Positions 3,208 to 59,346 are shown, counted from the stretch's first letter. The stretch: 64,000 nt of DNA from a virus (IMGVR_UViG_3300024346_000030:1-64000); one strand, 5' to 3'. Made by a program: numbers and translations. Notes: generated by a model from the letters alone, not told the origin.

Positions 3208-3829
3208 ATATATAAAAACAAAGATCTGTAATAAATGTGGCGAGGAGAAGTCATTAGATCATTTTAGCAAAACCAAAAGAATAAAAAGCGGTTATATTAG
3301 CATTTGTAAAGACTGTTGCAATAAACAAAGCAATGAAAGAAGAAAGGTTAGGAGAATTGAAGACCCAGAGTATAGAGCTAAAGAAATATCCCAATCAAAA
3401 AAGTGGAGAACTGAAAACAGAGATAAAAAAAATGACTATAAAAGAAAATATGAAAAGGATCGATACCACAACGACCCTATTCATAGAATGAAGATGTTAT
3501 ACTATAGTTCTGTAAATAACGCATTGTCGGGAAACAAAAGAGGAAAATTAAAATATCTTGGTTGTTCTTTAGAGCATCTTCAAGAGCATCTCGAATCTCA
3601 GTTTGAAGACGGCATGACGTTAGATAATAGGGGTGTTGGAAAAGGTAAGTGGCATGTTGATCATATTTTGCCTTTAGCTGCTGCCAAAGGTGATGAGGAT
3701 AAAATAATAATGCTGTGCCATTATACCAACCTTCGCCCAATGTGGAGTCATGAAAACGAGGCCAAGGGAGACAAACACTGCCCTAAAGAACTTGAGGCGT
3801 ATTTTGAAGAGAGAAAAGCTGCCAAATAG
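3200..3829 (+). CDS. HNH homing-type endonuclease with N-terminal zinc module
   Basis: KWHVDHILPL...HYTNLRPMW..EN..K; N-terminal CNKC..CKDC. Confidence 0.8.
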   Translation: MPKYIKTKICNKCGEEKSLDHFSKTKRIKSGYISICKDCCNKQSNERRKVRRIEDPEYRAKEISQSKKWRTENRDKKNDYKRKYEKDRYHNDPIHRMKMLYYSSVNNALSGNKRGKLKYLGCSLEHLQEHLESQFEDGMTLDNRGVGKGKWHVDHILPLAAAKGDEDKIIMLCHYTNLRPMWSHENEAKGDKHCPKELEAYFEERKAAK

Positions 3830-3833
3830 TGTA
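3829..3833 (+). promoter_or_regulatory. candidate late promoter GTGTA
   Basis: G of the motif lies 14 nt before ATG 3843; the same spacing occurs at several structural genes. Confidence 0.55.
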
Positions 3834-3842
3834 TAAACATGC

Positions 3843-4709
3843 ATGGAGTATAGCAGAATGCCATTTTATGTGGGAGCCATTAGCGGTAGCGGTATTGATG
3901 CTAGTGATGAGAGTGGTCGCTTCTTGTTTGTTGATTCTGTTGATGTTACATATGACACCAAGCTTACTCGGAAGAAGAAATTGGGCAGATGTAGTGTAGG
4001 TAATACGGATTATGTATCTGATCAGTTCTTAGATTGCAGGATTAAATTTGATTTTTATTTTAATGCGTCTTTACCTAGTGGTAACGGGAGTGTTTATGAT
4101 TTTTTGAATTATATACCAAATGAAAACAACTTTTTCCCAGTCAGGATAGGCAATAATACATTTAAGAAGTGTTTTGTAGATGATTACAGTGTAAAAGTTG
4201 AGCCATTTAAGGCTGTTAAGGGCAGCGCAACGCTATCTTGTTATGATCCACCTACAAGTGGTAGTATATCTGGTGATTCTACATTGCCAAATGAGTATTT
4301 TAATGATTTAATGAACAGTAATCAGCTGGTTTATGGTCATACTTGCGAGGTTAGTGGTGTTTGGGGTGATGTAGTTAGTTCCAATGTGTTAAATTCTGTA
4401 GAATATCGTCGAAGAGTTACTAAAGACCCGTCATATCAGCTTGGAGAAGAGTCTCCAGACTCTTTTCGGGTTGAGGAAATCGAAGAGGAGGTGATTGTAG
4501 AGTCTACTGGATTAGCTACATTCATAAATAAGAACGGTTATGACATTACAGGCAACTTAGCCTTGTTTTTGAAAGACTTTTCGGGTAATGCTGTTCCTAA
4601 TTACGAGATCAACTTGCCTATTGGGTCTAAACTATCGAACGAAACCTATGCAATCAAGGGTGGTGACGGTTTAATTAGTAAAGCTACAATAAAAAACTTA
4701 CTTGTATAA
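3843..4709 (+). CDS. probable tail-associated structural protein (tube/hub-like), displaced from the tail module
   Basis: Beta-rich pattern resembling 30821-31615 (FVDSVDVTYDT..KLG; YQLGEESP); preceded by GTGTA. Confidence 0.45.
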   Translation: MEYSRMPFYVGAISGSGIDASDESGRFLFVDSVDVTYDTKLTRKKKLGRCSVGNTDYVSDQFLDCRIKFDFYFNASLPSGNGSVYDFLNYIPNENNFFPVRIGNNTFKKCFVDDYSVKVEPFKAVKGSATLSCYDPPTSGSISGDSTLPNEYFNDLMNSNQLVYGHTCEVSGVWGDVVSSNVLNSVEYRRRVTKDPSYQLGEESPDSFRVEEIEEEVIVESTGLATFINKNGYDITGNLALFLKDFSGNAVPNYEINLPIGSKLSNETYAIKGGDGLISKATIKNLLV

Positions 4710-4846
4710 CTGTTATCAGTGTATTATATTTGAAATAACACTTGCTGACAACGCTAAAGCTGCGAAAAGCAAAAAATAACGTCACAATTTGTTGTTTTTT
4801 TAAATAAACGTTGAAAAACGTCAATAAATGCCTATATATAATATAC

Positions 4847-5179
4847 ATGAACCATGTTTTTTGTACTGATTGCGGCAATAAGATTGAGTATGCTTACTCG
4901 AAGCCTAAATTTTGCTCATCTTGCGGAAGCAAGGTAGGCGGTGGGGCTTCTTTAAAAAAAGATACCGTAGCCAAACCCTCTAGTAGTGAGGTTTTGGCTG
5001 CTGATGAGACTGATATTGATTTCATCCCTGATATAGACAGGCTTTCTGTCGATATTGAGCAGTTTAGTGATAATGTGTTTACATTTCAGTCATTATCAGA
5101 GGGGAAGACCTCTGGAAAAAATGTTAGAAGTAGAGGTTCTAAAACTTTAGAAGACTTTATTGATGACAAAAGAAGATAA
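4847..5179 (+). CDS. double zinc-ribbon protein (start reassigned to 4847)
   Basis: FCTDCG..KPKFCSSCG; TATAAT ends 4 nt before the ATG. Confidence 0.7.
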   Translation: MNHVFCTDCGNKIEYAYSKPKFCSSCGSKVGGGASLKKDTVAKPSSSEVLAADETDIDFIPDIDRLSVDIEQFSDNVFTFQSLSEGKTSGKNVRSRGSKTLEDFIDDKRR

Positions 5180-5888
5180 TTCAAAAAAAGATAGCCCCAA
5201 GAGATTTGAGGACCACATAGAGATAATAGAGGAAGCAATCCGCAAGCAGAGAAGCAGGTGGAGATTGGATTGTATTTCTTGGTTTGATTTTGAAGATGTA
5301 GAGCAGGTTATAAAGCTCCACATATATAATAAATGGTCCATGTGGGACCAAGAGAGGCCACTTGAGCCTTGGATTAACATAATTGTTACCAACCAGATAA
5401 GAAATCTGGTAAGAAACCACTACGGGAACTATACAAAGCCTTGTACTACTTGTGAATTCAATATGGGTGGTGATGGTTGTGATTATACCCCTAGCAGACA
5501 GCAGAACTCCGAGTGCGGTAAGTATGCTAAGTGGGAAAAAACAAAAAAGGTTGCTTTTGACCTTAAGGTAGCGGTGACTACAGAGAATCACATGCATGAA
5601 ATAAGTTATGCTCATGATAAGAGGTTGTGTTTTGATACGGCGATAGGTAAACTAAACCACCACATGAAACTGTGCCTTTCCAGCACTCACTTCAAAGCTT
5701 ATCATATGTTGTTTTTTGAAGAGTGTAGTGAAGAAGAGGTTGCCGAGTTCATGGGTTACAAAACTAACGAGAAGAAAAGAAAAGCTGGTTATAGGCAGGT
5801 AAAAAACCTCAAGAAAAACTTCATGGAAAAAGCAGCAGAAATTATAAAAAAAGAAGATATAATAATAAACAATACAGATAATTTATGA
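5160..5888 (+). CDS. phage RNA polymerase sigma factor (ECF-like) with a Cys4 insertion
   Basis: Region 2-like FEDVEQVIKLHIYNKWSMWDQERPLEPWINIIVTNQIRN; region 4-like SEEEVAEFMG; inserted CTTC-x8-C-x11-C. Confidence 0.7.
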   Translation: MMTKEDNSKKDSPKRFEDHIEIIEEAIRKQRSRWRLDCISWFDFEDVEQVIKLHIYNKWSMWDQERPLEPWINIIVTNQIRNLVRNHYGNYTKPCTTCEFNMGGDGCDYTPSRQQNSECGKYAKWEKTKKVAFDLKVAVTTENHMHEISYAHDKRLCFDTAIGKLNHHMKLCLSSTHFKAYHMLFFEECSEEEVAEFMGYKTNEKKRKAGYRQVKNLKKNFMEKAAEIIKKEDIIINNTDNL

Positions 5889-6933
5889 AACTTTCAGAAG
5901 ACCAGGAGAAATTTTTATCGGAGAATCACAAGGATATAAGCGATTTGAACAGCTTGACGCAACAATGTTTTGATGATGATAGCTTGGACGGAAGAACTAG
6001 CAGGGTAGGTTAGTTAGGAAGTTTTTAATTGATAACAATATTGATTTTAATACATCCAGGCGCAAAAAGAAAGATGAAATAGTATTTACCGACCAACAGA
6101 AGGATTTTATACTTGATCAAGCTAGGGATGGTATTTCTTCATTAGCTATAGCTAAATTAGTGTTCCCTAGCAAGAACGTTGTTGCACTGAGCAACGAGCA
6201 GAGATCTGTTCTTTCTCATATACATAGCGTTAACCCCGATTACCTGCCTACTCAGGACGGTGGGGCTTTAGATTCTTACGTTGGCCCGAAAGCTACTAGC
6301 AGAATAGTAAAGAAGATTAACGACGCGACTGGAAACACATTTGATGAACAAAAACTAAACAGACAGTACCAAGTTTGTGTCGAGCGGCTTGGTATTCACT
6401 TAAATAACTCACGCTTTCTTAAGATAATGAATAATTACTTAGATAAAACTGACAGAGATTTATTTGAGCAAGAATTTGTACGCTTAACCTGGGACAAACC
6501 AGACCTTACCGCTGATGAAATAAACCTTTACCTTAACGTATGTAAGGAAATCATTAACTTGGAGGTAGTAAGCAAGCATTTAAACAAACTTAACGACATG
6601 TTCGATGTTGCTGACGACCAAACGGAGATGTCTGTCCGACTTGCCGAAATCATAAAGGCTAAAAGTTCAGAATATCACCAGTGCGAAGGAAGAATCGAGA
6701 ACCTTACTAAAAAACTCCAAGGTGACAGATCAACTAGAATGCTAAACAAAACAAAAGACAATGCTTCTATTTTGTCCATAGTTCAATTATTTCAAGAAAA
6801 AGAAGAAAGAGACAATATGGTCAGGATGGCGGAAATGCAAAAAATGACAGCTAAAAAGGAGGCCGAAAGACTTGAGGGAATGGCTGAATGGAAAGCTAGG
6901 GTGTTAGGTATAAGCCAAGACGATGTTATTTGA
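5885..6933 (+). pseudogene. conserved packaging-cluster protein (terminase small subunit candidate), broken by an apparent 1-nt deletion at ~5999
   Basis: ATG 5885 reads MKLSEDQEKF..DGRT and then stops at TAG 6011. The -1 frame is open from 6001 (QGRLVRKFLIDN) into ORF 6160-6933. Adding one A gives DGRTKQGRLVRKFL. Confidence 0.6.
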
Positions 6934-7834: not shown

Positions 7835-7839
7835 AAAAA

Positions 7840-9699
7840 ATGAGTTGGGAAAAAGGAATACAAGAATCTAGAAATAGGTTCCCAGATATCAATAAAGAGA
7901 TTCTGGAGATAGATGGATACATAGAAGAAGAAGAGGCAAAACTATTGCTTTATAAATTCTTAAGACAGAACCCATCTTTTGCTGCTGAGTTTATTACTGG
8001 AGTAAAATTGTTCCCTTTCCAGCATATGTCCATAAAGGCCATGATGGAGACCGATTACTTTTTGGGGATATGGAGTCGTGGAATGTCCAAAAGCTTCTCT
8101 ACGGCCGTTTTTGCGCTATTAGACGCTATTTTAAACCAAGGTGTTCACATTGGAATCATATCTAAGTCTTTTCGACAGTCAAAAATGATATTTACGAAGA
8201 TGGAAGAGATAGCTGCGAGCCCAAAAGCCGAATTTCTTTCTCAATGTATTACGAGGGTATCAAAAGCTAATGATCAGTGGGTCATGGAGGTCGGTAGAAG
8301 TAAAATTACCGCCCTACCTCTTGGTGATGGAGAAAAACTTCGAGGCTTCCGTTTTGAGAGGATGATTATTGACGAGCTATTGCTCATGCCAGAGAAGGTT
8401 TTGAATGAGGTTATCATGCCGTTTCTATCTGTTATTAAAAATCCGACAGAGAGGCAGGAGATTCATGATGTGGAAACAGAGATGATTAAACAGGGTAAGA
8501 TGAAAGAGGAGGATAGACATAAGTGGCCGAACAACAAAATTATTGGTTTGTCTTCTGCATCTTATAGGTTTGAACATTTATATAAGATGTATTGTCAGTA
8601 TGAGTCATTGATTCTTAATGAAAACGAGCAAGACAAGGCTCATAGAACCATAATGCACTTTAGTTATGATTGTGCGCCGCCCCAACTATACGATCAAAAC
8701 CTTATTGATCAAGCAAAGGCTACAATGAGTCAGTCTCAGTTCGACCGAGAGTTTATGGCTGTATTTACAGACGATAGTTCTGGTTATTTCAAGGTGAGTA
8801 AGATGGCCGCGTGTACAATTCCAGATGGAGAAGGTCAATGCGTAGAAGTCAAGGGTCAGCCTGGCGATGAATATATATTAGCCTTTGACCCTTCTTGGTC
8901 TGAGAGTGATGGGTCCGACGATTTTGCTATGATGGTTATTAAGCTTAATAAAGAAACAAAAAAGGGTACAATAGTTCATAGTTATGCTTTATCAGGGTCT
9001 AACCTGAAAACTCACATTAACTACATGGCTTATATACTGGAAAACTTCAATATTGTTTCTGTGGTTGGTGACTACAATGGTGGAGTTCAGTTCTTAAACT
9101 CATGTAATGAGAGTAGTATTTTTAAAGATAAAAAAATAAAACTAAACTTGATTGATGCTGATTTAGACGATCATCAAAACTACGATAAAGGTCTCCGTGA
9201 TTTAAAGAGGCAGTATAACAAAGACAACAGGACTTTTGTGTTTTTAAGAAAGCCAAGTTCTAAGTGGATACGTTATGCAAACGAACTTCTTCAGGCTTCT
9301 TTTGACCACAAGAGAATATTCTTTGCTGGAGCAGCTATGGATGAAGATTACAACAAGCAAAGGAAGTCCAATATTCCAATTAAAAAATTAAAATTTATAA
9401 ACAACTATAATGAATCATCTGAGGCCGCAAAAATGATTGATTTTGTTGAGCATCAAAAAGATATGATGGACTTGGTGAAAGTTGAGTGTGCTATGGTTCA
9501 GGTTTCTACTTCAACACAAGGAACTCAAAGTTTCGATCTGCCTTTGAACTTAAGAAAACAAAGAGGTGCGGATAAAGCAAGAAAAGACTCATATTCTGCT
9601 TTAATACTTGGCAACTGGATGTTGAATGTATACTATGATATGACTGATGATAAAATCGAAACTAATCAAGGTACATTCACGCCTATGTTCATTGATTGA
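7840..9699 (+). CDS. terL: terminase large subunit
   Basis: SRGMSKS Walker A, LRGFRFERMIIDE Walker B, AFDPS RNase H-like nuclease, KDSYSA; lies upstream of the portal. Confidence 0.9.
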   Translation: MSWEKGIQESRNRFPDINKEILEIDGYIEEEEAKLLLYKFLRQNPSFAAEFITGVKLFPFQHMSIKAMMETDYFLGIWSRGMSKSFSTAVFALLDAILNQGVHIGIISKSFRQSKMIFTKMEEIAASPKAEFLSQCITRVSKANDQWVMEVGRSKITALPLGDGEKLRGFRFERMIIDELLLMPEKVLNEVIMPFLSVIKNPTERQEIHDVETEMIKQGKMKEEDRHKWPNNKIIGLSSASYRFEHLYKMYCQYESLILNENEQDKAHRTIMHFSYDCAPPQLYDQNLIDQAKATMSQSQFDREFMAVFTDDSSGYFKVSKMAACTIPDGEGQCVEVKGQPGDEYILAFDPSWSESDGSDDFAMMVIKLNKETKKGTIVHSYALSGSNLKTHINYMAYILENFNIVSVVGDYNGGVQFLNSCNESSIFKDKKIKLNLIDADLDDHQNYDKGLRDLKRQYNKDNRTFVFLRKPSSKWIRYANELLQASFDHKRIFFAGAAMDEDYNKQRKSNIPIKKLKFINNYNESSEAAKMIDFVEHQKDMMDLVKVECAMVQVSTSTQGTQSFDLPLNLRKQRGADKARKDSYSALILGNWMLNVYYDMTDDKIETNQGTFTPMFID

Positions 9700-9705
9700 A
9701 TTTTA

Positions 9706-9710
9706 GTGTA
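9706..9710 (+). promoter_or_regulatory. candidate late promoter GTGTA
   Basis: 14 nt before ATG 9720. Confidence 0.55.
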
Positions 9711-9719
9711 ACAATTATT

Positions 9720-10058
9720 ATGCCTTTACCAACACCAAACGATAAAGAGAAGAAAAGCGACTTTGTTTCAAGATGTTTATTATCTGAAGTTGTAAAAAAA
9801 GACTTTAAAAGTCAAGATCAGAGAGTTGCTGTTTGTTACAGTCAGTATGAAGAAGCAAAAAATAAATCCAAAGCTGTTGCTGAATTTGGTGATGATGAGA
9901 TTATTCTCATGGAATCAAATGAAGATCAAAAGAATTACGATCACGAAATGACCATTTCTAAAGAGTCAATGGAAGAGCTCCACGAAAAAGGAGAAACATA
10001 CATAACCGAAACAGATGGAGACGAAACTATGGTCATAAAAGTTAAATACCAAAGTTAA
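9720..10058 (+). CDS. small head-module protein (start reassigned to 9720)
   Basis: MPLPTPNDKEKKSDFVSRC..QRVAVCYSQY, a motif common in phage head-region proteins. Confidence 0.6.
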   Translation: MPLPTPNDKEKKSDFVSRCLLSEVVKKDFKSQDQRVAVCYSQYEEAKNKSKAVAEFGDDEIILMESNEDQKNYDHEMTISKESMEELHEKGETYITETDGDETMVIKVKYQS

Positions 10059-10098
10059 AGTCAAACTTTCGAAAGTTAAAGTTAAACTTTTGACTTTT
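10037..10098. repeat. nested AAAGTY/RACTTT inverted-repeat array
   Basis: Perfect palindrome AACTTTCGAAAGTT at 10064-10077; AAAGTCAAA 10057-10065 pairs with TTTGACTTT 10089-10097; further AAAGTTA copies. Confidence 0.8.
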
Positions 10099-10100
10099 CC

Positions 10101-10105
10101 GTGTA
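10101..10105 (+). promoter_or_regulatory. candidate late promoter GTGTA (portal operon)
   Basis: 14 nt before ATG 10115. Confidence 0.6.
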
Positions 10106-10114
10106 TAATAGGTT

Positions 10115-12115
10115 ATGGCGAAGAGAAAGTATACAAAGAAGTCTGATTACTGGGCTAAGTTTCACAAGGATCAAGAAAAGAGTATTGCTGCTAGCAACGA
10201 ACTCTTCGAACCGTCTTTAGAGGGCGATCCTTTTTATGTTTCATCAGCCTCTTACAAGGGGGTTTCAAAATCAGCTTGTCAAAGGGGTTCTTCGCCTAAA
10301 TCTGCGAGCAGAATAAATAGGGCTGCAGTAGCACCAAAAATAGATAAGTTTTCTAGTATCAGAACAGGCTTGCTTCCTTACGATTACTCTGCCGATGGCA
10401 TTAACGTTCGTGATGCTATAGAGTTGTGTCAAAAAGCATATGCCAATGTGTCTGTTTTTAGAAACGCTATTGATATTATGTCTGAATTCGCTAATACGGA
10501 TTTATTTCTAGAGGGAGGAACAAAGAAAAGCAGGGATTTCTTTAATGAGTGGTTTAAAAAGATTAATTTGATTAATTTGAAGGATCAATACTTTAGAGAG
10601 TACTACAGAAGCGGTAATATATTTTTATACAGGTTAGACGGTAAGTTTAAAGCTGATGATTTTGCTGAACTTGTTAATTCCATAGCTCCTAAAAATGGAT
10701 CTAAGAATTCCGTGCCAATCAGATACATACTCATGAACCCTTACGACATTGTCGCTACAAGGGCTTCGTCTTTCAATGATGGCGCTTACGAAAAAATACT
10801 CTCCGAGTATGAGATGTCTAGACTCCAAAACCCATCTACCGATGAGGACAAAGAGATATTCGAGGCCCTGCCAAAGAAAGTTCAGGAGAGTATTAAAAGA
10901 GGAGAATACAATGTTGATGGTTTAAAAATTCAACTAGACCCAGTTAAAGTGCTTCATTCTTTTTACAAGAAGCAGGATTATGAACCTTTTGCAATTCCTT
11001 TTGGTTATCCAGTTCTAGAGGACATAAACGCAAAGCTTGAACTTAAGAAAATGGATCAAGCTATAACAAGAACTATAGAAAATGTAATTCTTCTCATAAC
11101 TATGGGTGCAGAGCCTGATAAGGGTGGCATTAACGCTCAAAACCTAAACGCCATGCAATCTTTATTTAAAAATGAAAGTGTTGGACGGGTCCTTGTCTCG
11201 GATTATACAACGAATGCTGAATTTATTATACCAGACCTGAATAAGGTTCTTGGATCAGAAAAATACAAAGTATTAAACGAAGATATTAAGCAAGGTTTGC
11301 AGAATGTTGTTGTAGGAGAAGAAAAATATGGAGCTACTCAAGTCAAAGCTCAAATCTTCATAGATAGACTAAAAGAGGCCAGAAACGCATTCTTGTCAGA
11401 CTTCCTTCAAAAAGAAATAAAAAGAGTTTCCAAGGAGCTTGGTTTTAGATCTTATCCTACCGCCACATTTAAAGATATTGACATGAGAGATGAGACTCAG
11501 TTGATGAAGGTTGCCACCAGATTGATGGAGCTTGGTATCATTACCCCACAGCAAGGCATGGAAATGTTCCATACTGGTAAATTCCCTGAAGTAAGCGAAA
11601 TAAGCCCAGCACAAAAGAAGTTTGTAGAGGAACGTGAGGATGGTTACTACAACCCAATAGTAGGTGGAGTACCAATGATGGAGGGCGCTGAAACCAAAGA
11701 CAACAATCCCCAAAATGGTCCAAAGGGACAACCTGGCAGACCAGAAGGAACTTCGGGTTCGCCTCAAGTAAACTCAGAAGCAAAATATTCAAGGAAAGAT
11801 ATAGAGAGAACCATAAACGAACTCGAGACTGCTAGAGCGAGTATAAAGAAAGAAATGAAAGACAAGTTGAACATCAAAAGGTTTAATAAGAAAAACGAAA
11901 AGATGTTAGACAGTTTGTGCGAAGCTATAGTTTGTTCTACTGAGATTGAAAATTGGACACAAAAAGCTTTTTCTTGTGTATCTAATTTAGAAGAGATACA
12001 AAAACTTGACGTAAAGTCAAAAATTTTAGAAATAGCTGCGGAACACGAATTAGATAATTACTCTGCAGCTATACTTTATCACAGCAATAATAAGAATGAA
12101 GAAACACAAGCCTAA
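10115..12115 (+). CDS. portal protein
   Basis: Lies between terL and the protease; AYANVSVFRNAID, KQDYEPFAIPFGYPVL, GRVLVSDY motifs. Confidence 0.8.
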   Translation: MAKRKYTKKSDYWAKFHKDQEKSIAASNELFEPSLEGDPFYVSSASYKGVSKSACQRGSSPKSASRINRAAVAPKIDKFSSIRTGLLPYDYSADGINVRDAIELCQKAYANVSVFRNAIDIMSEFANTDLFLEGGTKKSRDFFNEWFKKINLINLKDQYFREYYRSGNIFLYRLDGKFKADDFAELVNSIAPKNGSKNSVPIRYILMNPYDIVATRASSFNDGAYEKILSEYEMSRLQNPSTDEDKEIFEALPKKVQESIKRGEYNVDGLKIQLDPVKVLHSFYKKQDYEPFAIPFGYPVLEDINAKLELKKMDQAITRTIENVILLITMGAEPDKGGINAQNLNAMQSLFKNESVGRVLVSDYTTNAEFIIPDLNKVLGSEKYKVLNEDIKQGLQNVVVGEEKYGATQVKAQIFIDRLKEARNAFLSDFLQKEIKRVSKELGFRSYPTATFKDIDMRDETQLMKVATRLMELGIITPQQGMEMFHTGKFPEVSEISPAQKKFVEEREDGYYNPIVGGVPMMEGAETKDNNPQNGPKGQPGRPEGTSGSPQVNSEAKYSRKDIERTINELETARASIKKEMKDKLNIKRFNKKNEKMLDSLCEAIVCSTEIENWTQKAFSCVSNLEEIQKLDVKSKILEIAAEHELDNYSAAILYHSNNKNEETQA

Positions 12116-13625: not shown

Positions 13626-13654
13626 CAATTTAACAAAAAAACAAAAATAAAATT

Positions 13655-14263: not shown

Positions 14264-14294
14264 TCTTTAACAATTAACAAGAATATATATAAAT

Positions 14295-15413
14295 ATGAAA
14301 ATTTCTCTTAAAAGAACACCAGAACAAATTGAGCTTATTAAGGCTATGGCTTCTAAGAACCGTTCGGTTGCTTACGAAGCTCAAGTAGCACTTGCAGAGT
14401 TTATTGGCCCAGTTATCGCTGAAGTCATCAACAACGCTCCAGTACTTAGTAACCTATTTACCCCTCTTCAGTTTAACTCAGAAGACAATCCTTCGATTCC
14501 TTTGGATCTGTACTACGATGTTACTGATGAAGATTACGTACAGGTTTACAGCAACAGTGTTGCTGGAGGTCTTCCTCAAAACCAAGTCGTTCCTACTGTT
14601 TCCGAACTTAAGGTCGCTACCTACAGCCTGGACACAGCAGTAAGCTTTGATCGTCGTTATGCAGCCAAGAGCCGCATGGACGTTGTAAGCAAGACATTCA
14701 CTCGCATGGCTCAAGAAATTCTTCTCAAGCAAGAGAAGACTTCAGCTAACCTTATCATGGGTGCTGTAGCAGGAGCAACAACTAACGGTAAGGATCACGT
14801 TTTCCGTGCAACTTCCGATGGTTCTTTCCTTCTTGACGACTTCAACGAGCTTATCACTCGCGGCAAGCGCATCAACACAGCATGGAACAAAGGCACCCCA
14901 GAAGGTGGCCGTCGTGGTATCACCGATATCATGGTTTCTCCAGAAGCTGTTAAAGCTCTTCGTGAGATGTCTTACAACCCAATCAACACCAAAGGTACCG
15001 ATTCTATTGCTGGCACAGACAGCGTACGTGAGTCAGTATTCAATGCTGGTGGTGGTCTTCCTGACTTCTACGGTATCTCCATCATGGAGGTTAACGAGCT
15101 TGGTGTAGGACAGAAGTTCAACACAATCTTCGACACAGTTGCTGGCGCAACTTCATACACCAAGGCTGATGGAACTGCTGGAGCTGTCTTTGACGGCGCT
15201 GCAGACGAAATCATGATTGGTCTTGATCGTGGACGCGATGCTCTTATTAAGGCAATCGCTGTTGACGAGGAGAACGGATCTGAGTTCCAAATGATTGCTG
15301 ACGATCAGTACAGCATTCGTCAGAACAAGATTGGCTGGTTCGGTGGTCTTGAAGAGGGCCGCATGGTCCTTGATAACCGCGCACTTGCTGGTATCGTTTG
15401 TAACGGTCTCTAA
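14295..15413 (+). CDS. major capsid protein (HK97 fold)
   Basis: 372 aa, highly biased codon usage, position in the head operon, strong terminator immediately after. Confidence 0.8.
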   Translation: MKISLKRTPEQIELIKAMASKNRSVAYEAQVALAEFIGPVIAEVINNAPVLSNLFTPLQFNSEDNPSIPLDLYYDVTDEDYVQVYSNSVAGGLPQNQVVPTVSELKVATYSLDTAVSFDRRYAAKSRMDVVSKTFTRMAQEILLKQEKTSANLIMGAVAGATTNGKDHVFRATSDGSFLLDDFNELITRGKRINTAWNKGTPEGGRRGITDIMVSPEAVKALREMSYNPINTKGTDSIAGTDSVRESVFNAGGGLPDFYGISIMEVNELGVGQKFNTIFDTVAGATSYTKADGTAGAVFDGAADEIMIGLDRGRDALIKAIAVDEENGSEFQMIADDQYSIRQNKIGWFGGLEEGRMVLDNRALAGIVCNGL

Positions 15414-15434: not shown

Positions 15435-15465
15435 AAGGTCACTCTTAACTGAGTGGCCTTTTTTT
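15435..15465 (+). terminator. intrinsic terminator after the MCP, abutting a GTGTA motif at 15466
   Basis: AAGGTCACTC-TTAACT-GAGTGGCCTT followed by a T tract. Confidence 0.85.
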
Positions 15466-15499
15466 GTGTAAATATTCAATAACAAACCTATTATAAAAT

Positions 15500-17773: not shown

Positions 17774-18943
17774 TTACTCCCAAGGAAGTTTTGTGTCGTT
17801 ACTGCCGCTGAAGAATACACCCTTGGTTTTATCTTTAACGCCTCCAAGTTGAGTAGAGAAGGTAAGGTCTACACTCTTATTTGACCCGATGCTTGATGAG
17901 AAGTTCTCAGAATCAAGGGTACAACCAAGAAGTTTAATCTTCATAGCTGGTGTCTGGTCACACTCAAGGAGAGTCAGTGTTACAGAGTTAAGTGACTGCT
18001 CACAACCACTAATTAGATCAGCAAGGTTTTGTGCTTCAACTGTGTTAACTACAGCGCTAACGTTTAGTGTTGCGTTAATTGGGAAATCAACAGTTCTTGC
18101 GAATGGGAACTTAGAACCAAGTCTTTCGATTGGTGTCCTTGAAAGAGGGACAGATAGTGCCGCGCTCTGAACGTGGATTCCGTTATCTCCAACAAGAGAT
18201 GAAAGGGTGTTGCCACTGAAGTCGGAAAGATCGATTTGAATGTCTCCAGGTCTAAGGGCTGTTACCTTATCTCTGTCATCAGCAACATAGTCACCGCTAA
18301 AGGAGTTTCCTGTTGCAAAAGGAATAGATAATGAAGTGCCAAGCGCTGTTCCCAATGTTGGGTTGATTCCTGGGCTTTCGATTCCTGTGAATGATTTGCT
18401 AGCAAGGTCTCCGCTAACTGATGCGTCAGTAGAGATGTTTGAAGCTTCAAAACTTACAGAAGCAGTTGGTAGTGAACCAACGGAAAGATCGAGTGAATAA
18501 TCACTGAGGAATGCATTTCCAATACAGATAAACGTGTTGTCTGTCTCGTTCTCTTGTCTGTTAAGGTTTGCGTCTCTACCTTCTGGGGTAGTTAGAATGA
18601 AAAGGTTTTGACCTGAGTTTGAAACCATGTGACCAGAAGGAAACTGACCCGTAGTTGGGTTGTTTGCGTTCTCAACGTGGAAACCTAAAAGTCTTTCGTT
18701 AAATCCGTTTGTTGGGTAGTATGTTAAGTCAACGTTTACTGTTGGAGCTTCAAGAATCAAAGAGTCGATTCTGGCGAGGTTTCCAAACTGGTTGACATCC
18801 TGCCTGTTGATAGTAAAACCATAGTTTGCACTCTGAACTCTCTGGACCTGTGCGTGGTCAGAAAGACTTGTTGAGTTGTACTCTTTACTAGCAAAAAGCG
18901 CTTCTGATTGGTAGATTACTCTATTTCTGTTATTTATTGCCAT
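17774..18943 (-). CDS. tail tube (major tail) protein, paralog B
   Basis: Tandem paralog of 16609-17739; beta-rich with biased codon usage. Confidence 0.65.
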   Translation of the reverse strand: MAINNRNRVIYQSEALFASKEYNSTSLSDHAQVQRVQSANYGFTINRQDVNQFGNLARIDSLILEAPTVNVDLTYYPTNGFNERLLGFHVENANNPTTGQFPSGHMVSNSGQNLFILTTPEGRDANLNRQENETDNTFICIGNAFLSDYSLDLSVGSLPTASVSFEASNISTDASVSGDLASKSFTGIESPGINPTLGTALGTSLSIPFATGNSFSGDYVADDRDKVTALRPGDIQIDLSDFSGNTLSSLVGDNGIHVQSAALSVPLSRTPIERLGSKFPFARTVDFPINATLNVSAVVNTVEAQNLADLISGCEQSLNSVTLTLLECDQTPAMKIKLLGCTLDSENFSSSIGSNKSVDLTFSTQLGGVKDKTKGVFFSGSNDTKLPWE

Positions 18944-18992
18944 AGCGATTATTATTTAAAATGATTACAGTTGTTTTGGGGGTTTGTGAAAT

Positions 18993-19865: not shown

Positions 19866-20440
19866 TTTATATTTTTAAACTTTTTCTTGTACTTTTTAAG
19901 TAGAGAGGATATATAAGGAACCCTTTTAAATCTTGCTGTTCTGACTTTTTTGTCTGCCTGTATAGCTACACCAGATCTACTTGAAGAAGTTGATTTATTT
20001 AATAAATAACCAAGACCAGATATTCCAGACTCTATACCTTTAGACCAACTTCTACCAGAAGCCCACGGCATTGGGGTTGCGTTGAATATATCTTGAGAGG
20101 TGGGAAAGGATACGTTGAATTTTCTGCCCTTTGTAGATTCTCCGTTATCTGAGTAAGATATGTTTTCTAGTATTTGCAAAATGGGATCTATGGGTTGCTC
20201 AGAAGTGTTGAAACCTATAAATGCGAATAGGTTAGATTTACCTGCTAGCGTACCGCTTATATTAGAGCCTCCTGGTCCAGAAAGTATTTCGATTGTAACT
20301 GGATGACTTAGAAACTCTTTTATCATTTCTTTCTTTGTTTCGTCAAACGCCTTCTTGAAAGCCTTTTTGTAATCTTTTTTTAAAGATTTTTGAGACTTTC
20401 TCTCTATTTTTTTAAGTACGCTTTTTGGTATTTTAATCAT
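19862..20440 (-). CDS. neck/tail completion-like protein
   Basis: Basic 192-aa ORF coupled within the inverted neck-tail block. Confidence 0.45.
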   Translation of the reverse strand: MIKIPKSVLKKIERKSQKSLKKDYKKAFKKAFDETKKEMIKEFLSHPVTIEILSGPGGSNISGTLAGKSNLFAFIGFNTSEQPIDPILQILENISYSDNGESTKGRKFNVSFPTSQDIFNATPMPWASGRSWSKGIESGISGLGYLLNKSTSSSRSGVAIQADKKVRTARFKRVPYISSLLKKYKKKFKNIK

Positions 20441-20901
20441 TAGTCTGTAGACTCGTCAATAGGTGAGAAGTAGAAGGTATAAAATAGGTTTCCAGTTAAC
20501 CCGTAAGGCTTACCGTCTGTATGTATTGAAAACCTTTTTCCGTCGAACTCCACTCTTCTGGCTTCTTTTATATAGTCGTAACCCTCTTTTTTTACTATAA
20601 CCTTAACAGAGCCCTCCGCAAGAATAATCTTTGTTTGGCTTTTTTCGTTATTTAGTAGCCCCTCTTCCGTTTTAATATAATATATTCTAGCGTCAAAGGT
20701 TTCGGATAAAGTTGTATACTCTACACTGTCTCTTTTCCCTAAGTTGTTTCTACTATATATAGAGTTGTATTTGGGGTCGTGAGCTATAAGTGTTTTTTTG
20801 CCGTTCTTATAAACGGTAATTGTTTGAGAAAACGTATCATGCAATTTATTATATAAAAAGTCTATGTTTTCTATTTGTGATGAAGATAAGAACCCTGCCA
20901 T
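20440..20901 (-). CDS. probable head closure (stopper) protein (start reassigned to 20901)
   Basis: FSQTITVYK..DARIYY..VKVIVK..RRVEFDGKRF; GTGTA (20911-20915, minus strand) lies 14 nt upstream of ATG 20901. Confidence 0.5.
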   Translation of the reverse strand: MAGFLSSSQIENIDFLYNKLHDTFSQTITVYKNGKKTLIAHDPKYNSIYSRNNLGKRDSVEYTTLSETFDARIYYIKTEEGLLNNEKSQTKIILAEGSVKVIVKKEGYDYIKEARRVEFDGKRFSIHTDGKPYGLTGNLFYTFYFSPIDESTD

Positions 20902-20947
20902 GTTGAAAATTACACTTTTTTTCGTATTATTATACGAGGTTAACGGT

Positions 20948-21235
20948 ATGAACGCTAAAAAAATTCTAAATGATGCTTCTAATAAGGAGATTTCTAATCT
21001 TTTTAAGATGTTATTGATACTGCTGGAGGACATGAAACAAGATCATGATTTCCATTATAAAAAGCTTTACGATAATATACCTAAGAAATATCATTCAGTA
21101 ATAGACACCGCAAATCACTTCACTCCAGAAAAAATATCATGGATAAGGAAAAGGATTCTGGATTTTGGTAATGAGTCTATTAGAAATGTTGAAAGCGAGC
21201 TCGAAAACTATCAAGTAACATTTAAATTTAAATAA
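20948..21235 (+). CDS. hypothetical protein (start reassigned to 20948)
   Basis: MNAKKILNDAS..; divergent from the neck block. Confidence 0.6.
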   Translation: MNAKKILNDASNKEISNLFKMLLILLEDMKQDHDFHYKKLYDNIPKKYHSVIDTANHFTPEKISWIRKRILDFGNESIRNVESELENYQVTFKFK

Positions 21236-23004: not shown

Positions 23005-23048
23005 TTAAATTTTGGTGTAATTAGAACCAAGGATAAAAGGTTTCACCC

Positions 23049-36262: not shown

Positions 36263-36655
36263 TTAATCGCTGTAATCAACCTTAACGTTTTTGCTTTCGT
36301 AGCCTTTCGATTTAATTTCGTCGAGGTGTTTAGCTCCGCTTCTTGCTTTTGAGTAATCAGCAAAATGCTTTTCTTTGACTGGGTCTATTCCACCATTTGA
36401 CTCTGATCTTCTTTCGCTCATTTCTTTGCTATAATTCATCATTTCTCCAAAAGTTCCTTTTTTGCCTCCAGTTTTATCAACAAACTCTTTAGAGCTGTGA
36501 GGGTCAATATGGGTATCTATAGATGCATTGGGTATTGTGAATATCCTCTTCCATTCGAGGCCGTCTGAGTCGAAGTGGATGTGCTCATCATTCATGCCCT
36601 GAACAACTTCTGTATATTTTTCTTCTTCTGGGTGCTTGTAGATATATATTGGCAT
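36263..36655 (-). CDS. FmdB-like protein lacking the zinc-binding Cys residues
   Basis: MPIYIYKH..VVQGMN..WKRIFTIP matches the FmdB N-terminal pattern; TATAAT 5 nt upstream. Confidence 0.6.
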   Translation of the reverse strand: MPIYIYKHPEEEKYTEVVQGMNDEHIHFDSDGLEWKRIFTIPNASIDTHIDPHSSKEFVDKTGGKKGTFGEMMNYSKEMSERRSESNGGIDPVKEKHFADYSKARSGAKHLDEIKSKGYESKNVKVDYSD

Positions 36656-39704: not shown

Positions 39705-40063
39705 TACATTTAATGTCTTTATTAATTATATATGTAATACCTTTAATACTATATACCTCATTGCGCCTTCGGCGCGTTATTTATTTTAAATTGCATTTAA
39801 AAAAATAACTATAGGTGTATATGTTATTTTGCCAATAGAGGTATTTTCTTTCTGTTCCGTTGTTCCTTTCGAAGTTATTATATAAAAGCCGTCTACTTTT
39901 TTCTACAACAAAATTAATTTTTATTTTCAACTTAAAAAAAATGCTAAATTTTCTCGTTGACTAGGAACTAAAATCAGCTAATGTGTAACTTATACCAGCG
40001 ACCACTTTTGGGGCATCGTCGCGGCCGAAATTAAATTAACAATAAACAAAAAAAACACTGAAA

Positions 40064-42708: not shown

Positions 42709-42746
42709 CATTTCATTATTTTAAAATTTTAGTGTAAAGAATTAAT

Positions 42747-46226: not shown

Positions 46227-47255
46227 ATGAAGAAGGCAATAATTACAGGAGTAACAGGTCAAGATGGTAGTCACATGGTAGACTACTTGTTGGCGAACAC
46301 AGACATTGATATCATCGCAGGAGTACGCCGACTTAGCGTTAAAAATCACGAGAATATAAAACACTTGTCTGACAGCCCAAGATTTAGACTAATCGACCTT
46401 GATATAACTGATCAATCAAATGTCAATCGTGTTATCGAGGAAGAGAAGCCAGACTACTTTATTAATTTTGCAGCAAATTCATTTGTTGGTGTTAGTTGGG
46501 ACATGCCAGAGAACCACATGAATACAAACTGCATGGCGGTATTGTACCAGCTTGAGGCTATCCGCAAATACTGCCCAGATTGCCGTTATTACAACGCTGG
46601 TTCATCCGAAGAGTTTGGCGACGTAGTTACTGCCCCACAGGACGAGACGCACCCACTGCGCCCTAGAAGCCCCTATGGAGCATCCAAAGCGGCAGCAAGA
46701 CACCTAGTTAAAGTATGGCGTGAAAGTTATAATTTATACGCCATTCAAGGTTGGCTTTTTAATCACGAAGGAATTCGTAGAGGTGAAGAATTTCTTACCC
46801 GAAAAGTCACTAAAGGTGTGGCTGAGATATTTTGGAAAAACAGCATCGGAGATGACTTCAAACCCATTAAGCTTGGAAACCTTGAAGCAAAAAGAGACTG
46901 GTCTGATGCGGAGGATTTTGTAGATGGTATTTGGAAGATGCTTAATCAAAAAGAGCCAAAGGAATATGTTCTAGCCTCTGGAGAGACCCATACAATCAGA
47001 GAGTTTGTGGAAACTGCTTTTGCTTATGCTGGCTACGGTGCTGAAAAATGCAAATGGGTTGGTGAAGGTCTAGACGAAAAATATATTCACGGTAATCAAT
47101 TACTTGTTGAGATTAACCCTAAATATTACAGACCCGCCGAGGTAGAGCTTTTATTAGGAGACCCTTCCAGAGCAGAAAAAGAGCTTGGCTGGATCAGAAA
47201 AACAAATTTTCAAGGGCTTGTAAAAAAGATGGTTGACAACGATATCAGTTTGTGA
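46227..47255 (+). CDS. gmd: GDP-mannose 4,6-dehydratase
   Basis: ITGVTGQDGS, SSEEFG, PRSPYGASK, LFNHEG.RRGEEF.TRK, GNLEAKRDW, YRPAEVELLLGD. Confidence 0.95.
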   Translation: MKKAIITGVTGQDGSHMVDYLLANTDIDIIAGVRRLSVKNHENIKHLSDSPRFRLIDLDITDQSNVNRVIEEEKPDYFINFAANSFVGVSWDMPENHMNTNCMAVLYQLEAIRKYCPDCRYYNAGSSEEFGDVVTAPQDETHPLRPRSPYGASKAAARHLVKVWRESYNLYAIQGWLFNHEGIRRGEEFLTRKVTKGVAEIFWKNSIGDDFKPIKLGNLEAKRDWSDAEDFVDGIWKMLNQKEPKEYVLASGETHTIREFVETAFAYAGYGAEKCKWVGEGLDEKYIHGNQLLVEINPKYYRPAEVELLLGDPSRAEKELGWIRKTNFQGLVKKMVDNDISL

Positions 47256-47261
47256 TATCGT
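47233..47261 (+). promoter_or_regulatory. sigma70 promoter of the replication operon, overlapped by a 9-5-9 inverted repeat
   Basis: TTGACA-17 nt-TATCGT, 6 nt before ATG 47268; ACGATATCA-gtttg-TGATATCGT. Confidence 0.7.
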
Positions 47262-47267
47262 TATCCC

Positions 47268-47708
47268 ATGCCTAGGGGTAAAAAAGAGTGTCCATCATGC
47301 AAAAGTCTCATAGGAGTGAGGCTCGAAAGCTGTGCGTGTGGACACGTATTTTCCAAAAAGAAAAAAGCAGAAAGTAAGATAAGTAAAATGTCTATACTTA
47401 ACAGGCTTATTTTGGTACCAGATAAAAATAAGAGGCCCTTCTATGCGAGGGAAATGAAAATGCTAAACATCCTCTGCGAGAGATACTCTCTTGAGTTTAT
47501 TAACATAGTGGAGTTTGGTAAAAAGTTTGATTCGTTTGCTTATATTTCGAGTCCAAAACTTAAGGATGTTATGGATATGAAATGGAGGGCTTTTAATTAT
47601 AAGGTTGACAAAAATAAATATACGGAATATAATATTGGTGAAAAGGTAGGGAAAGACAAACAAATAACAAAAAGAAACAAAACAACAAAAGATTTTTTAA
47701 ATGAGTGA
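47268..47708 (+). CDS. zinc-ribbon hypothetical protein
   Basis: CPSC..CACGH at the N-terminus. Confidence 0.6.
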   Translation: MPRGKKECPSCKSLIGVRLESCACGHVFSKKKKAESKISKMSILNRLILVPDKNKRPFYAREMKMLNILCERYSLEFINIVEFGKKFDSFAYISSPKLKDVMDMKWRAFNYKVDKNKYTEYNIGEKVGKDKQITKRNKTTKDFLNE

Positions 47709-50946: not shown

Positions 50947-50956
50947 TATAGCAGAC

Positions 50957-53000: not shown

Positions 53001-53025
53001 CTTTTTTATATTATGATGTTACCAT
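52997..53025 (+). promoter_or_regulatory. sigma70 promoter of the polymerase genes
   Basis: TTGACT-17 nt-TACCAT, 6 nt before ATG 53032. Confidence 0.6.
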
Positions 53026-53031
53026 CATAAC

Positions 53032-56911: not shown

Positions 56912-59346
56912 GTGTAGATAATAATGTGATATTTCAAGATTTCAACCTTACCCCTAGGGCGAAAAAAGCATACTCGGACGCCAAACAAATATCTGAAGAG
57001 TTTGGCCACAAAACCATAAACAACTTACATATAATGTATGGTTGCCTAAAAAACATGTCTAAAGATTTAGACGACTATCTTTTTGATAATGGTTATGTGT
57101 TGTCTCACGAAGATGTAAAAGATAGCTTTAGTTTTGCAGTTTTAAATGAAAAAGATAAATTTTATAGTAACAAAAACTCAGAGATATGGCACAAAGAAGT
57201 AGTTGACTCAATAAAAGAATCTAACAGAATATCAAAAAAACACGGACAGCATTATATTAGCATAGAGCATGTTGTGTGTGCTATATCATCTACATCCTCG
57301 TATATATTTGAATACATAGACGATTTCTTTGATTGTAAAGGCTTTCATCAAGTACTTTCTCAATTTATCAATGAGGAGCATTACAACCCCGATGAAATTG
57401 AGCAAGACTTAGATCAAAGCGTAAACCTAGAAAGCATAGAAAATTTACTTGCTGAAAATTTTGAGCCTTTATCTATACCAGATTTTGTATCAAACATGAA
57501 TCTCCTTTATATTGATGGTAAGGTTGATGATGTTCATGGTAGGGAAGAAGAGGTTACGTCTTTAGTAGAAACATTATCCAAGAAGAATAAATGTAACGCT
57601 ATACTTACTGGTGATCCAGGTGTTGGCAAGACTGCCATTATAGAAGCTTTGGTTAAAAAAGTATGCGATGGTGATGTTCCAGCAAACCTACTTAATATAG
57701 AAATCTTAAGTGTAGATTTAGGCGCTATGATTTCAGGAACTCAATACAGAGGTCAGTTCGAAGAAAAATTCAAGTCGTTATTGAACATGGCTAAAAGCAA
57801 TCCATCTATAGTTTTGTTTTTTGATGAGATACATACTATCTTCGGAACAGGAGGAAACAACCAGGAGGGCAGCCTGGATGCCGCCAACATGTTGAAACCA
57901 CTTCTAGCAAGGGGCGAGATCAGGTGTGTCGGAGCGACCACTACAGACGAATACAGGAAGATATTCGAAAAAGATGGAGCTATAAAAAGAAGATTCTTAA
58001 ATATTGACGTTTTAGAGCCCAGTAAAGATGAGACCAAGCATATCTTATATAACTGCAAGAAGAAGTATGAAAAATTTCATGGTGTTTATTTCAGAAAAGA
58101 CACAATAGATCACATTGTAGATCTTTGTGATTTATTCTTAACAAACAAGAAGTTTCCAGATAAGGCTTTTGATGTTCTGGATTTAGTGGCTGCTAAAGTA
58201 AAGATAGCTAACTTAGAACCAACATCTGTAATCAAAGACGCACATAAAGGTTTTGTTTCTGACATATCCAAAAAAAACATTAGCGAATCAGAGATAAGAG
58301 AAACTTTCAAAGACTTCATGCAAACGCTAGAAGGTTTTAGTCAAAACAAAAATAAGAAAGCATCATTGGTTAAGAAGAAAGATGTTACAAACTTAATTTC
58401 TAAAATGGCTAAAGTGTCTATAAATGAATTATCAAATCAAAAAAACAGCTTTGATAAGTTTGTAAACAAGATGTCGTCGGAGGTTTTTGGTCAAAAAGAA
58501 GTAATAGAAGAAGTTAATAACCTCTTATCTTGTTGTAAGGTTGGCTTACACGACGAACAAAAACCATTGGCTAGTATGTTTTTTGTAGGCCCAACAAGTG
58601 TTGGCAAAACATACACAGCAAAGAAAATAGCAAAACACTATTTTGGCAACGAAAAAGCTTTCTTGCAGATAAATATGAGTGAGCTTTACGACAAGACAGG
58701 GATTAGCAAACTTATTGGTTCTAATTCTGGTTATGTTGGTTATGAGAACGGGGGTTTATTAACTAACTTCGTGAAAGATAACCCAAACTGTGTTATATTA
58801 TTTGACGAAGCTGAAAAAGCTGACCCACAAATTCTCAATATACTCCTGCAGATACTTGACGAGGGTTATATAGAAGATAGCAAAAACAATAAAATAAACT
58901 TTTCAAAATCAATAATAATATTCACAAGCAATGCTGGTCATGACTTAGTGACAAAGAAGACCATGGGTTTTATTGAGGAGGAGGTTAACGCAAATAAAAC
59001 TTACGTATCCTCTGTCAAAAAATATCTAAAACCAGAACTTGTTGCTCGCATAGATAAAGTCATGGCGTTCAATTCTATAGGTGAAAATGAATTTAAAATG
59101 ATAATAAAGAGAGAGCTTCAAATCATAAAAGAAAAACTTGCGAAAATAAACATCAAATTTAATTTCAATGACTCAACAATTAAATCCTTAAAACAACAAA
59201 TGGAAGATAAAAATTTCCATGCCAGAGAAATAAACTCTTTCATAAAAGAAAAGGTAAAAGTTCCAATTTCCAAGTTCCTTGTCAAAAATAAAAACATTCG
59301 AAAATTATCTATAAAACATGTTGACAATGATACGAAGGTGTGTTAA
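56908..59346 (+). CDS. ClpA/ClpC-like Hsp100 AAA+ ATPase (true start may be GTG 56926)
   Basis: Clp N-domain, GDPGVGKT, FFDEIH, GATT, PDKAFD, GPTSVGKT, LFDEAEKA; MGF loop. Confidence 0.9.
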   Translation: MSVDNNVIFQDFNLTPRAKKAYSDAKQISEEFGHKTINNLHIMYGCLKNMSKDLDDYLFDNGYVLSHEDVKDSFSFAVLNEKDKFYSNKNSEIWHKEVVDSIKESNRISKKHGQHYISIEHVVCAISSTSSYIFEYIDDFFDCKGFHQVLSQFINEEHYNPDEIEQDLDQSVNLESIENLLAENFEPLSIPDFVSNMNLLYIDGKVDDVHGREEEVTSLVETLSKKNKCNAILTGDPGVGKTAIIEALVKKVCDGDVPANLLNIEILSVDLGAMISGTQYRGQFEEKFKSLLNMAKSNPSIVLFFDEIHTIFGTGGNNQEGSLDAANMLKPLLARGEIRCVGATTTDEYRKIFEKDGAIKRRFLNIDVLEPSKDETKHILYNCKKKYEKFHGVYFRKDTIDHIVDLCDLFLTNKKFPDKAFDVLDLVAAKVKIANLEPTSVIKDAHKGFVSDISKKNISESEIRETFKDFMQTLEGFSQNKNKKASLVKKKDVTNLISKMAKVSINELSNQKNSFDKFVNKMSSEVFGQKEVIEEVNNLLSCCKVGLHDEQKPLASMFFVGPTSVGKTYTAKKIAKHYFGNEKAFLQINMSELYDKTGISKLIGSNSGYVGYENGGLLTNFVKDNPNCVILFDEAEKADPQILNILLQILDEGYIEDSKNNKINFSKSIIIFTSNAGHDLVTKKTMGFIEEEVNANKTYVSSVKKYLKPELVARIDKVMAFNSIGENEFKMIIKRELQIIKEKLAKINIKFNFNDSTIKSLKQQMEDKNFHAREINSFIKEKVKVPISKFLVKNKNIRKLSIKHVDNDTKVC

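Follow-up and report, generated by a model that had tools for sequence, protein, structure and literature searches.

A GTGTA(A/T) box phased to start codons as the candidate recognition element of a phage-specific, near-leaderless promoter class in uncultured marine phages

The DNA analysed here (IMGVR_UViG_3300024346_000030:1-64000; hereafter the window, meaning the whole 64-kb stretch) is phage DNA with a GC (guanine plus cytosine) content of ~37%, and its source is an uncultured marine phage of ~125 kb. Short copies of GTGTA(A/T), hereafter designated the box, lie upstream of start codons in the window, and we interpret the box as the probable recognition element of a phage-specific class of middle/late promoters. 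A terminase gene is located at 7840–9699, and the virion block opens with a 666-residue gene at 10115; the latter is termed the portal gene after the label given in an earlier reading of this DNA from the sequence alone (the sequence-only reading), while Pfam and PHROGs searches gave no family match. The genes after the portal gene show weak, sub-threshold Pfam hints, first of a scaffold- or protease-like and then of a cement-like protein. The 372-residue gene at 14295, which is the most conserved open reading frame (ORF) of the head block and also had no family match, presumably encodes the major capsid protein. A 2590-residue ORF starting at ATG 23049 is taken as the tape-measure gene, downstream of which lies a minor-tail-protein hint. 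The window also carries nrdB, a DNA polymerase III alpha gene, and a ClpB-like AAA+ gene assigned by Pfam.

Neither a near-identity DNA search of cultured phages with the window nor a tblastn search of them with the portal protein and the sigma protein described below gave a match, and the terminase showed only ~26% identity to cultured phages. In IMG/VR, ~600 loci with a related portal gene were found using the 666-residue gene as the query. The family set used below comprises 80 of these loci (56–88% amino-acid identity to the portal; 836 kb; duplicate sites removed), to which two further relatives of near-complete length, G1 (98.5 kb) and G3 (104 kb), were added. The boxes of the window and the sites related to them are as follows; all positions given for them in the sequence-only reading proved correct on recheck.

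3829–3834, plus strand: GTGTAT, 14 nucleotides (nt) before ATG 3843 of a gene for a 288-residue protein of unknown function; 9 of 10 orthologues in relatives have GTGTAA or GTGTAT 14–15 nt before the ATG
4719–4724, plus strand: GTGTAT, directly after the stop codon of the 3843 gene and ~92 nt before the zinc-ribbon (4811) and sigma (5160) genes
9706–9711, plus strand: GTGTAA, 14 nt before ATG 9720 of a gene for a 112-residue protein between terminase and portal; 14 and 16 nt in L001 and G3
10101–10106, plus strand: GTGTAT, 14 nt before the portal ATG 10115; heads the portal–scaffold/protease–cement–capsid block
15466–15471, plus strand: GTGTAA, 34 nt before ATG 15500 (leadered class); 34–35 nt in relatives
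18965–18970, minus strand: variant CTGTAA, 27 nt before ATG 18943 of a 389-residue gene
20910–20915, minus strand: GTGTAA, 14 nt before ATG 20901; heads the minus-strand block 20901–16609
23015–23020, plus strand: GTGTAA, 34 nt before the tape-measure ATG 23049; 27–39 nt in relatives, some of which have two copies
39957–39988, plus strand: host-type promoter TTGACT-N16-TAATGT overlapping GTGTAA (39983–39988), the box lying 81 nt before the nrdB ATG 40064
42732–42737, plus strand: GTGTAA, 15 nt before ATG 42747 of a gene for a DUF5824 protein (by Pfam); identical in G1, at 15 nt
56912–56917, plus strand: GTGTAG, 14 nt before the in-frame GTG 56926 of the ClpB-like AAA+ gene

The regulon described in the sequence-only reading as structural genes is correct for the portal, tape-measure and other virion-block genes but too narrow, as the box also heads the zinc-ribbon/sigma, nrdB, DUF5824, and ClpB-like genes; host-type −35/−10 promoters are found at small genes and at genes outside the virion block. 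Several start codons had been reassigned on the basis of the box. Those at 9720 and 20901 agree with the conserved N-termini in relatives (MPLP.. and MAGFL.., respectively), whereas GTG 56926 of the ClpB-like gene is ambiguous against ATG 56908, with which the longest ORF begins, overlapping the stop codon of the DNA polymerase III alpha gene. The overlapping upstream ATG is also found in G1, in which a GTG follows GTGTAT at 14 nt; in G3, the upstream ATG is missing and GTGTAA stands 15 nt ahead of an ATG.

GTGTA is under-represented in the window as a whole (59 copies versus 89 ± 8.5 in shuffles). Eight copies fall within the non-coding 4.5% of the window (P = 0.005), each of them directed into the next gene (P = 0.004). 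All five sites matching TTTNNGTGTAW (W, A or T) are on the sense strand, at most 34 nt upstream of a start codon; however, a T-run was rejected as part of the motif, because the count itself (5 versus 2.05 expected) is not significant and only the locations are informative. For an agnostic scan, all 1024 pentamers were counted at 36 offsets upstream of start codons (36,864 tests). Three of the five starts at 14 nt in the sequence-only reading are hand-picked alternatives to the longest ORF, and the phasing support from the window by itself is moderate. With the window, G1, and G3 scanned together, GTGTA at 14 nt became the top signal, observed 13 times versus 0.97 expected (p = 4e-11).

The same phasing was obtained in the 80 loci, where distances were measured between the first G of GTGTA(A/T) and an ATG that begins an ORF with 40 or more codons. 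Thus, 68 sites lie at 14 nt, 33 at 15 nt, 16 at 16 nt, and 65 in total at 17–22 nt, with an upper tail to ~36 nt and a sharp lower edge, only 0–1 sites being found per offset at 10–13 nt. Four control words, including TGTGAW, GAGTAW, and GTGTA[CG], were flat. Of the start codons 14 nt after the box, 76 are ATG, 4 GTG, and 2 TTG, a preference for ATG that is expected for leaderless initiation. With the relatives added, the phasing is decisive, and an artefact of chance or composition is ruled out by the control words and by the conservation in relatives. The spacing is retained in relatives, with the mode at 14 nt across the 80 loci. The distance is nevertheless not fixed as had been claimed: 14 nt is both its mode and its minimum, but it ranges over 14–24 nt at the portal gene and 27–39 nt at the tape-measure gene.

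Two variants of the box had also been proposed. ATGTA, noted 16 nt before 33660, finds no backing, since ATGTAW shows no phased enrichment in the 80 loci. CTGTA(A/T) gives no phased peak in general either, and both were discarded as general variants; the individual site at the 18943 gene is nonetheless conserved, as NTGTAA 26–28 nt upstream in 22 relatives, with N being C, A, or T but never G and TGTAA invariant. The 389-residue protein of this gene, labelled tail tube in the sequence-only reading, had no family match.

The boxes are kept at orthologous genes while the flanking DNA diverges. GTGTAW is found exactly 14 nt before the ATG of the 20901 gene in 17 of 17 distinct relatives, each of the ~75 relatives examined has a box ahead of its portal gene, and ~24 of 30 orthologues of the 16078 gene have one. 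The copies at 4719 and 39983 had been regarded as orphans, but both are conserved at the corresponding places. In ~18 of 21 relatives, GTGTAW occurs right after the stop codon of the 3843-gene orthologue, 14–18 nt before a ~238-residue gene (N-terminus MARK.. or MPKK..; for example, in L026, L059, L062, and G3), which is missing from the window and its closest relatives, L007 and L009, all of which retain the box. At nrdB, the overlap of a host-type promoter with the box at ~81 nt is common to the window and G1, and G3 has GTGTAA 18 nt before the nrdB ATG. The leadered sites are thus conserved at 27–39 nt and 81–92 nt from the start codon and have no ATG at 14 nt. The box at 15466 is among those with no ATG 14 nt downstream and hence acts independently of the start codon there.

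A logo built from 56 non-redundant sites shows GTGTA to be invariant, with A (40 sites) or T (16 sites) as the sixth base, a preceding A in 36 of the 56, and strictly AT-rich flanks. No −35 partner was found, the information being <0.26 bit at each position from −45 to −10, which bears out the earlier description of the element as −10-only. The canonical promoter arrangement for extracytoplasmic function (ECF) sigma factors, an AAC-containing −35 element 16–17 nt before a CGT/GTC-type −10, is also absent, as there is no conserved upstream element; only the short G/T-rich, −10-like core of the box resembles ECF −10 elements. The box at 15466 directly follows an intrinsic terminator on the plus strand (15435–15460; hairpin with a 10-bp stem including five GC pairs, and a T-run). 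The hairpin, T-run, and GTGTAA are kept together in 6 close relatives, and the arrangement of terminator and then box is seen in many relatives. The 372-residue gene at 14295 has no box of its own, which fits an operon extending from the portal box to this terminator.

Two further features of the box point to a signal in DNA. In window genes, GTGTA on the antisense strand is found 13 times versus 39.7 expected from synonymous-codon shuffles (z = −5.3), which makes it the second most depleted of the 1024 pentamers in the window, after words containing CCGG. Family-wide, it is found 280 times versus 425 expected (rank 33 of 1014, behind restriction-site words). On the sense strand, GTGTA is not depleted (1.0–1.09 of expectation). 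Depletion confined to the antisense strand fits selection against antisense promoters and would not be caused by a signal in mRNA. Moreover, a hard edge at 14 nt with a tail is predicted if the transcription start cannot fall downstream of the ATG, whereas an RNA-level ribosome signal would give a symmetric optimum; a Shine-Dalgarno (SD)-type reading was rejected on this ground and for want of complementarity between the box and the anti-SD sequence. The TA of GTGTA lies 11–12 nt from the ATG, and the distance from TATAAT to ATG in host-type promoters also peaks at 11–12 nt. This shared register indicates that transcription from both promoter classes would start on the A of the ATG or next to it. 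The near-leaderless placement suggested by the sequence-only reading is in keeping with these findings, the 14-nt lower edge and the TATAAT-like register putting the predicted start at or within 1–2 nt of the start codon.

A candidate reader of the box is encoded in the window together with an overlapping neighbour.

5160–5888, plus strand: ECF-like sigma70-family gene (Pfam, homologue annotation, and AlphaFold2 (AF2)/Foldseek)
4811–5179, plus strand: zinc-ribbon gene, overlapping the sigma gene (Pfam DZR/zinc ribbon, below curated cut-offs)

The sigma ORF of the window scores 20 bits for Sigma70_r2 (PF04542), below the 24-bit cut-off, whereas its orthologues in G002 and G003 score 24.6–24.9 bits, above it, and many homologues carry PF04542 or are named sigma24. 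For the AF2 model (predicted local distance difference test (pLDDT) score, 79), each of the 14 best Foldseek matches is a sigma factor (ECF-type in 12 cases; probabilities, 0.91–1.00); SigH, SigL, RpoE, AlgU, and SigW are among them. The model has a C-terminal four-helix unit, and the alignments (~205–226 columns) span both ECF domains at a low global TM-score of 0.25; PF08281, for region 4, was not detected in relatives. Cys95, Cys98, Cys107, and Cys119, located in the inter-domain linker, are invariant. The gene is conserved family-wide and adjoins the packaging genes, and the zinc-ribbon protein is a possible partner of the sigma. No multisubunit RNA polymerase (RNAP) beta subunit (PF00562) was matched in G001–G003, with positive controls working, and single-subunit RNAP (PF00940) likewise gave no match in G001–G003, in a search that had no positive control. 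Family-wide co-conservation of the sigma gene and the box, together with precedent in other phages, suggests that the phage sigma reads the box.

From the observations above we infer promoter activity for the box, together with the position of its transcription start, the sigma that reads it, and its timing of expression. We propose that GTGTA(A/T) is the sole recognition element of a phage-specific middle/late promoter class, which is read by the phage sigma and gives leaderless mRNAs, and assign this reading a probability of about two in three. Presumably, host core RNAP carrying the phage ECF-like sigma would occupy the box (about −14 to −9), the AT-rich DNA downstream would melt, and transcription would begin ~14 nt after the first G. 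Most members of the class have an ATG exactly at this predicted start or 1–2 nt further on and would yield leaderless or nearly leaderless messages, and a minority in the window, namely the tape-measure gene, the 15500 gene, nrdB, and the sigma operon, would have ordinary leaders of 27–92 nt. Located at operon heads, and often right behind a terminator, the boxes would divide the virion region into transcription units: from box 10101 through the portal to the 14295 gene and the terminator at 15435–15460, from box 15466, from box 20915 into the minus-strand block, and from box 23015 into the tape-measure gene. With a box ahead of its own operon, the sigma may be under positive autoregulation.

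The closest analogue that we find is the promoters served by gp36 of phage phiEco32. With host core RNAP, gp36 directs middle and late transcription from promoters having a single AATGTA element centred at −11.5 (tAATGTAtA) and no −35 element, early genes of phiEco32 have host-type −35/−10 promoters, and the corresponding element of phage 7-11 is TGATGT (PMC12276001, PMC4331800); the gp36 promoter sequence is given as TAATGTATA (PMC4331800). The present box shares with these promoters one short element with a TGTA core, here predicted to lie near −11, the absence of a −35 element, and a phage-encoded sigma70-family protein. It differs in its consensus, (A)GTGTA(A/T), in that most transcripts are predicted to be leaderless, in the four invariant linker Cys residues of the sigma, and in that no gp79-like cofactor was identified in the present phage; moreover, phiEco32 is a coliphage podovirus, whereas the window belongs to an unrelated uncultured marine phage with a tape-measure gene.

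The other comparisons are less close in one or another respect. The sequence-only reading had called the box T4-late-like, and the T4 late promoter (TATAAATA; read with gp55, gp33, and the gp45 clamp) is indeed a −10-only element, at which host core RNAP works with a sigma-like protein of the phage. Of the T4 factors, gp55 is minimal and sigma2-like and depends on gp33 and the sliding clamp, whereas the present sigma aligns with two-domain ECF sigmas; in addition, the consensus of the box is not TATAAATA, and T4 late mRNAs have SD leaders, so that T4 is a poor analogue in sequence, factors, and leaders alike. Many middle/late transcripts of Thermus phage P23-45 are leaderless. Its middle/late promoters resemble the box in lacking a −35 element and in being set apart by bases just upstream of the −10 hexamer (PMC3950348). 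They differ in being read by host sigma-A, with sigma4 displaced by gp39, and in having TGn plus a full −10 hexamer, in contrast to a box that is degenerate beyond TA(A/T) in a phage encoding its own sigma. Finally, in leaderless mRNAs such as lambda cI from PRM and those of mycobacteria (PMC4633059), a −10 element ~6–7 nt upstream of AUG sets the start of both transcription and translation, and AUG is strongly preferred, as found here; the difference is that leaderlessness would here go with a phage-specific promoter class serving the virion genes of an entire phage lineage, whose host-type early promoters would be leaderless as well.

Several points weigh against the proposed reading. In the window-only scan, GTGTA at 14 nt ranks 4th (p = 8.6e-5), which fails correction for the 36,864 tests, and the antisense depletion is weaker in G1 (z = −3.2) and G3 (z = −2.1). 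A sigma4-like domain seems to be part of the sigma model, but the box has no visible −35 element, and ECF sigmas normally need an AAC-type −35. The sigma also has no detectable relation to phiEco32 gp36, homology to which was rejected at an hhalign probability of 0.2% for a 31-sequence profile, so that the analogy with phiEco32 is functional only, within the sigma70 superfamily. At 56912, the sixth base of the box is G and the proposed start codon is GTG, from which leaderless initiation is poor in some bacteria.

The evidence was also weighed under other explanations. The box might be a promoter read by the host primary sigma as an unusual extended −10 element (GTG followed by TAnnnn), perhaps favoured by a phage factor that disables −35 recognition, as do gp39 of P23-45 and AsiA of T4, with the phage sigma serving other genes. 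The register of its TA with that of TATAAT promoters, the several sites reading GTG-TATAAT or GTG-TAATAT, and a swap of class at one orthologue (TATAAT 11 nt before the ATG at 36655, minus strand, in the window; GTGTAT 14 nt before a GTG at the 48974 orthologue in G1) speak for this possibility, as does the precedent of P23-45, whose middle/late promoters are extended −10 elements read by host sigma-A (PMC3950348). Even so, we consider it unlikely: GTG is invariant in the box, whereas the host-type promoters of the same genome have a −35 element and no GTG, and the sigma gene is conserved family-wide beside the packaging genes. Furthermore, the arrangement of TGnTATAAT is not found, since TG abuts TA with no spacer base, and the equivalent of T-7, which is a key contact for primary sigmas, is not conserved (A in 26 and T in 24 of the 56 sites).

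Alternatively, the box might act in RNA, within the 5' untranslated region, as a translation enhancer, as an operator for a phage protein, or as a cleavage site for an endonuclease that leaves a 5' end immediately ahead of the start codon. Such a role would account for the tight spacing to the start codon, for boxes at tightly packed junctions such as that of the 15500/16078 orthologues (gap, ~16 nt), and for a spacer of 8–10 nt without an SD sequence. It is distinctly improbable, however, given the hard 14-nt edge with a long tail in place of a symmetric optimum, the conserved sites 27–92 nt from the start that have no ATG at 14 nt, the depletion on the antisense strand only, the frequent position of the box right after a terminator, where little upstream transcript is expected, and the lack of complementarity between GTGTAA and the anti-SD CCUCC. 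Still less credence can be given to the box being the site of a late activator or repressor, with the surrounding AT-rich DNA forming the true promoter. The element is short and invariant, and the additional operator-like palindromes at the portal promoter are taken as a sign that DNA-binding regulators act in the region; yet a site centred ~11 nt upstream of the deduced start would lie inside the region melted by RNAP, while activators normally bind at −35 or further upstream. The box also lacks symmetry, spans just 6 nt, and is accompanied by no second conserved promoter element.

If the preferred reading, a −10-only promoter class served by the phage sigma, is true, the box would allow operons to be mapped and gene starts to be corrected throughout a large family of marine and aquatic phages known only from uncultured material, and it would define a new sigma/promoter pair orthogonal to host promoters and provide a clear case of a virus systematically making leaderless mRNAs for its virion genes. 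The concept has precedent in the phage sigma and one-box promoter of phiEco32 and in leaderless phage transcripts and is thus an extension of a known kind, not a new principle. A broader picture, possible but doubtful, is that this abundant uncultured aquatic phage lineage expresses most of its post-early genes through the 6-nt box and a Cys4 ECF-like sigma, with transcription starting on the AUG to give leaderless mRNAs that bypass host ribosome-binding signals. Variant boxes (NTGTAA at 18943), the promoter overlap at nrdB, and the portal operators would then tune individual operons, and the sigma would amplify its own synthesis. If, in addition, −35-dependent transcription or the translation of leadered mRNAs were impaired by the phage, the whole would be a complete takeover strategy.

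Promoters of the host type (TTGACA-N17-TATAAT) end 5–6 nt before ATGs in the window, at 47261 (ATG 47268), 59627 (59634), 53025 (53032), and 36661 (36655). They are listed here from their upstream end to the start codon.

47233–47268, plus strand: host-type promoter to start codon
59599–59634, plus strand: host-type promoter to start codon
52997–53032, plus strand: host-type promoter to start codon
36689–36655, minus strand: host-type promoter to start codon
59321–59356: further host-type promoter, probable
256, minus strand: further host-type promoter

As these promoters abut the start codons, early and other genes would also be leaderless, and the position of the promoter at 59321–59356 implies that the second ATG, at 59356 and not 59350, is the real start. 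Upstream of nrdB (39957–40063), the 81-nt leader after the box carries a GC-rich hairpin; the dual promoter, conserved in G1, suggests that nucleotide synthesis may be under dual early and late control. A 95-residue gene at 20949–21235, divergent from the 20901 gene and masked by the over-long ORF 20440–21033, has an N-terminus conserved in relatives and a TTGAAA-N16-TATTAT promoter of its own that overlaps the minus-strand box.

Directly upstream of the portal box lies one more element.

10051–10092, plus strand: two tandem 21-nt repeats, each containing an AAAGTyAAACTTT palindrome

In ~75 relatives, arrays of AACTTT/AAAGTT are kept ahead of the portal gene. Within the window, such repeats are confined to the portal promoter, and they were therefore rejected as a general upstream element of the box. 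The repeats resemble operators that would be bound by a dimeric regulator of the head operon alone, or they possibly form a packaging site.

Of the two phage sigma factors envisaged in the sequence-only reading, one corresponds to 5160–5888, and the second was not found: Pfam searches of the neighbouring and candidate ORFs of the window gave nothing, and PF04542 in relatives gave one real match each plus a weak match (E = 0.01) in a 191-residue ORF, the window counterpart of which has no sigma domain. The ORF 6160–6933, considered as the second sigma, was rejected because it is part of a broken 349-residue helical protein with no sigma signature. This 349-residue gene (5885–6933 in the window) follows the sigma gene and is conserved family-wide at 70–100% identity, but in the window it is split by a one-base deletion near 5999, and ORF lists show only 6160–6933; the break may reflect misassembly or a true frameshift. 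Helical and with a long C-terminal coiled coil, the protein has no fold or database match; its position would suit a small terminase or a transcription cofactor. One NCBI contig with homologues of both the sigma and the 349-residue protein (P0025 / P0155) is labelled 'MAG: Flavobacteriaceae bacterium', a label that is either a hint of the host or a binning artefact, the TTGACA/TATAAT early promoters being unlike Bacteroidota promoters.

CCGG is absent from the window (0 versus 55.8 expected) and nearly absent family-wide, and G3 is also without GTAC; the loss of these words points to strong restriction-site avoidance.

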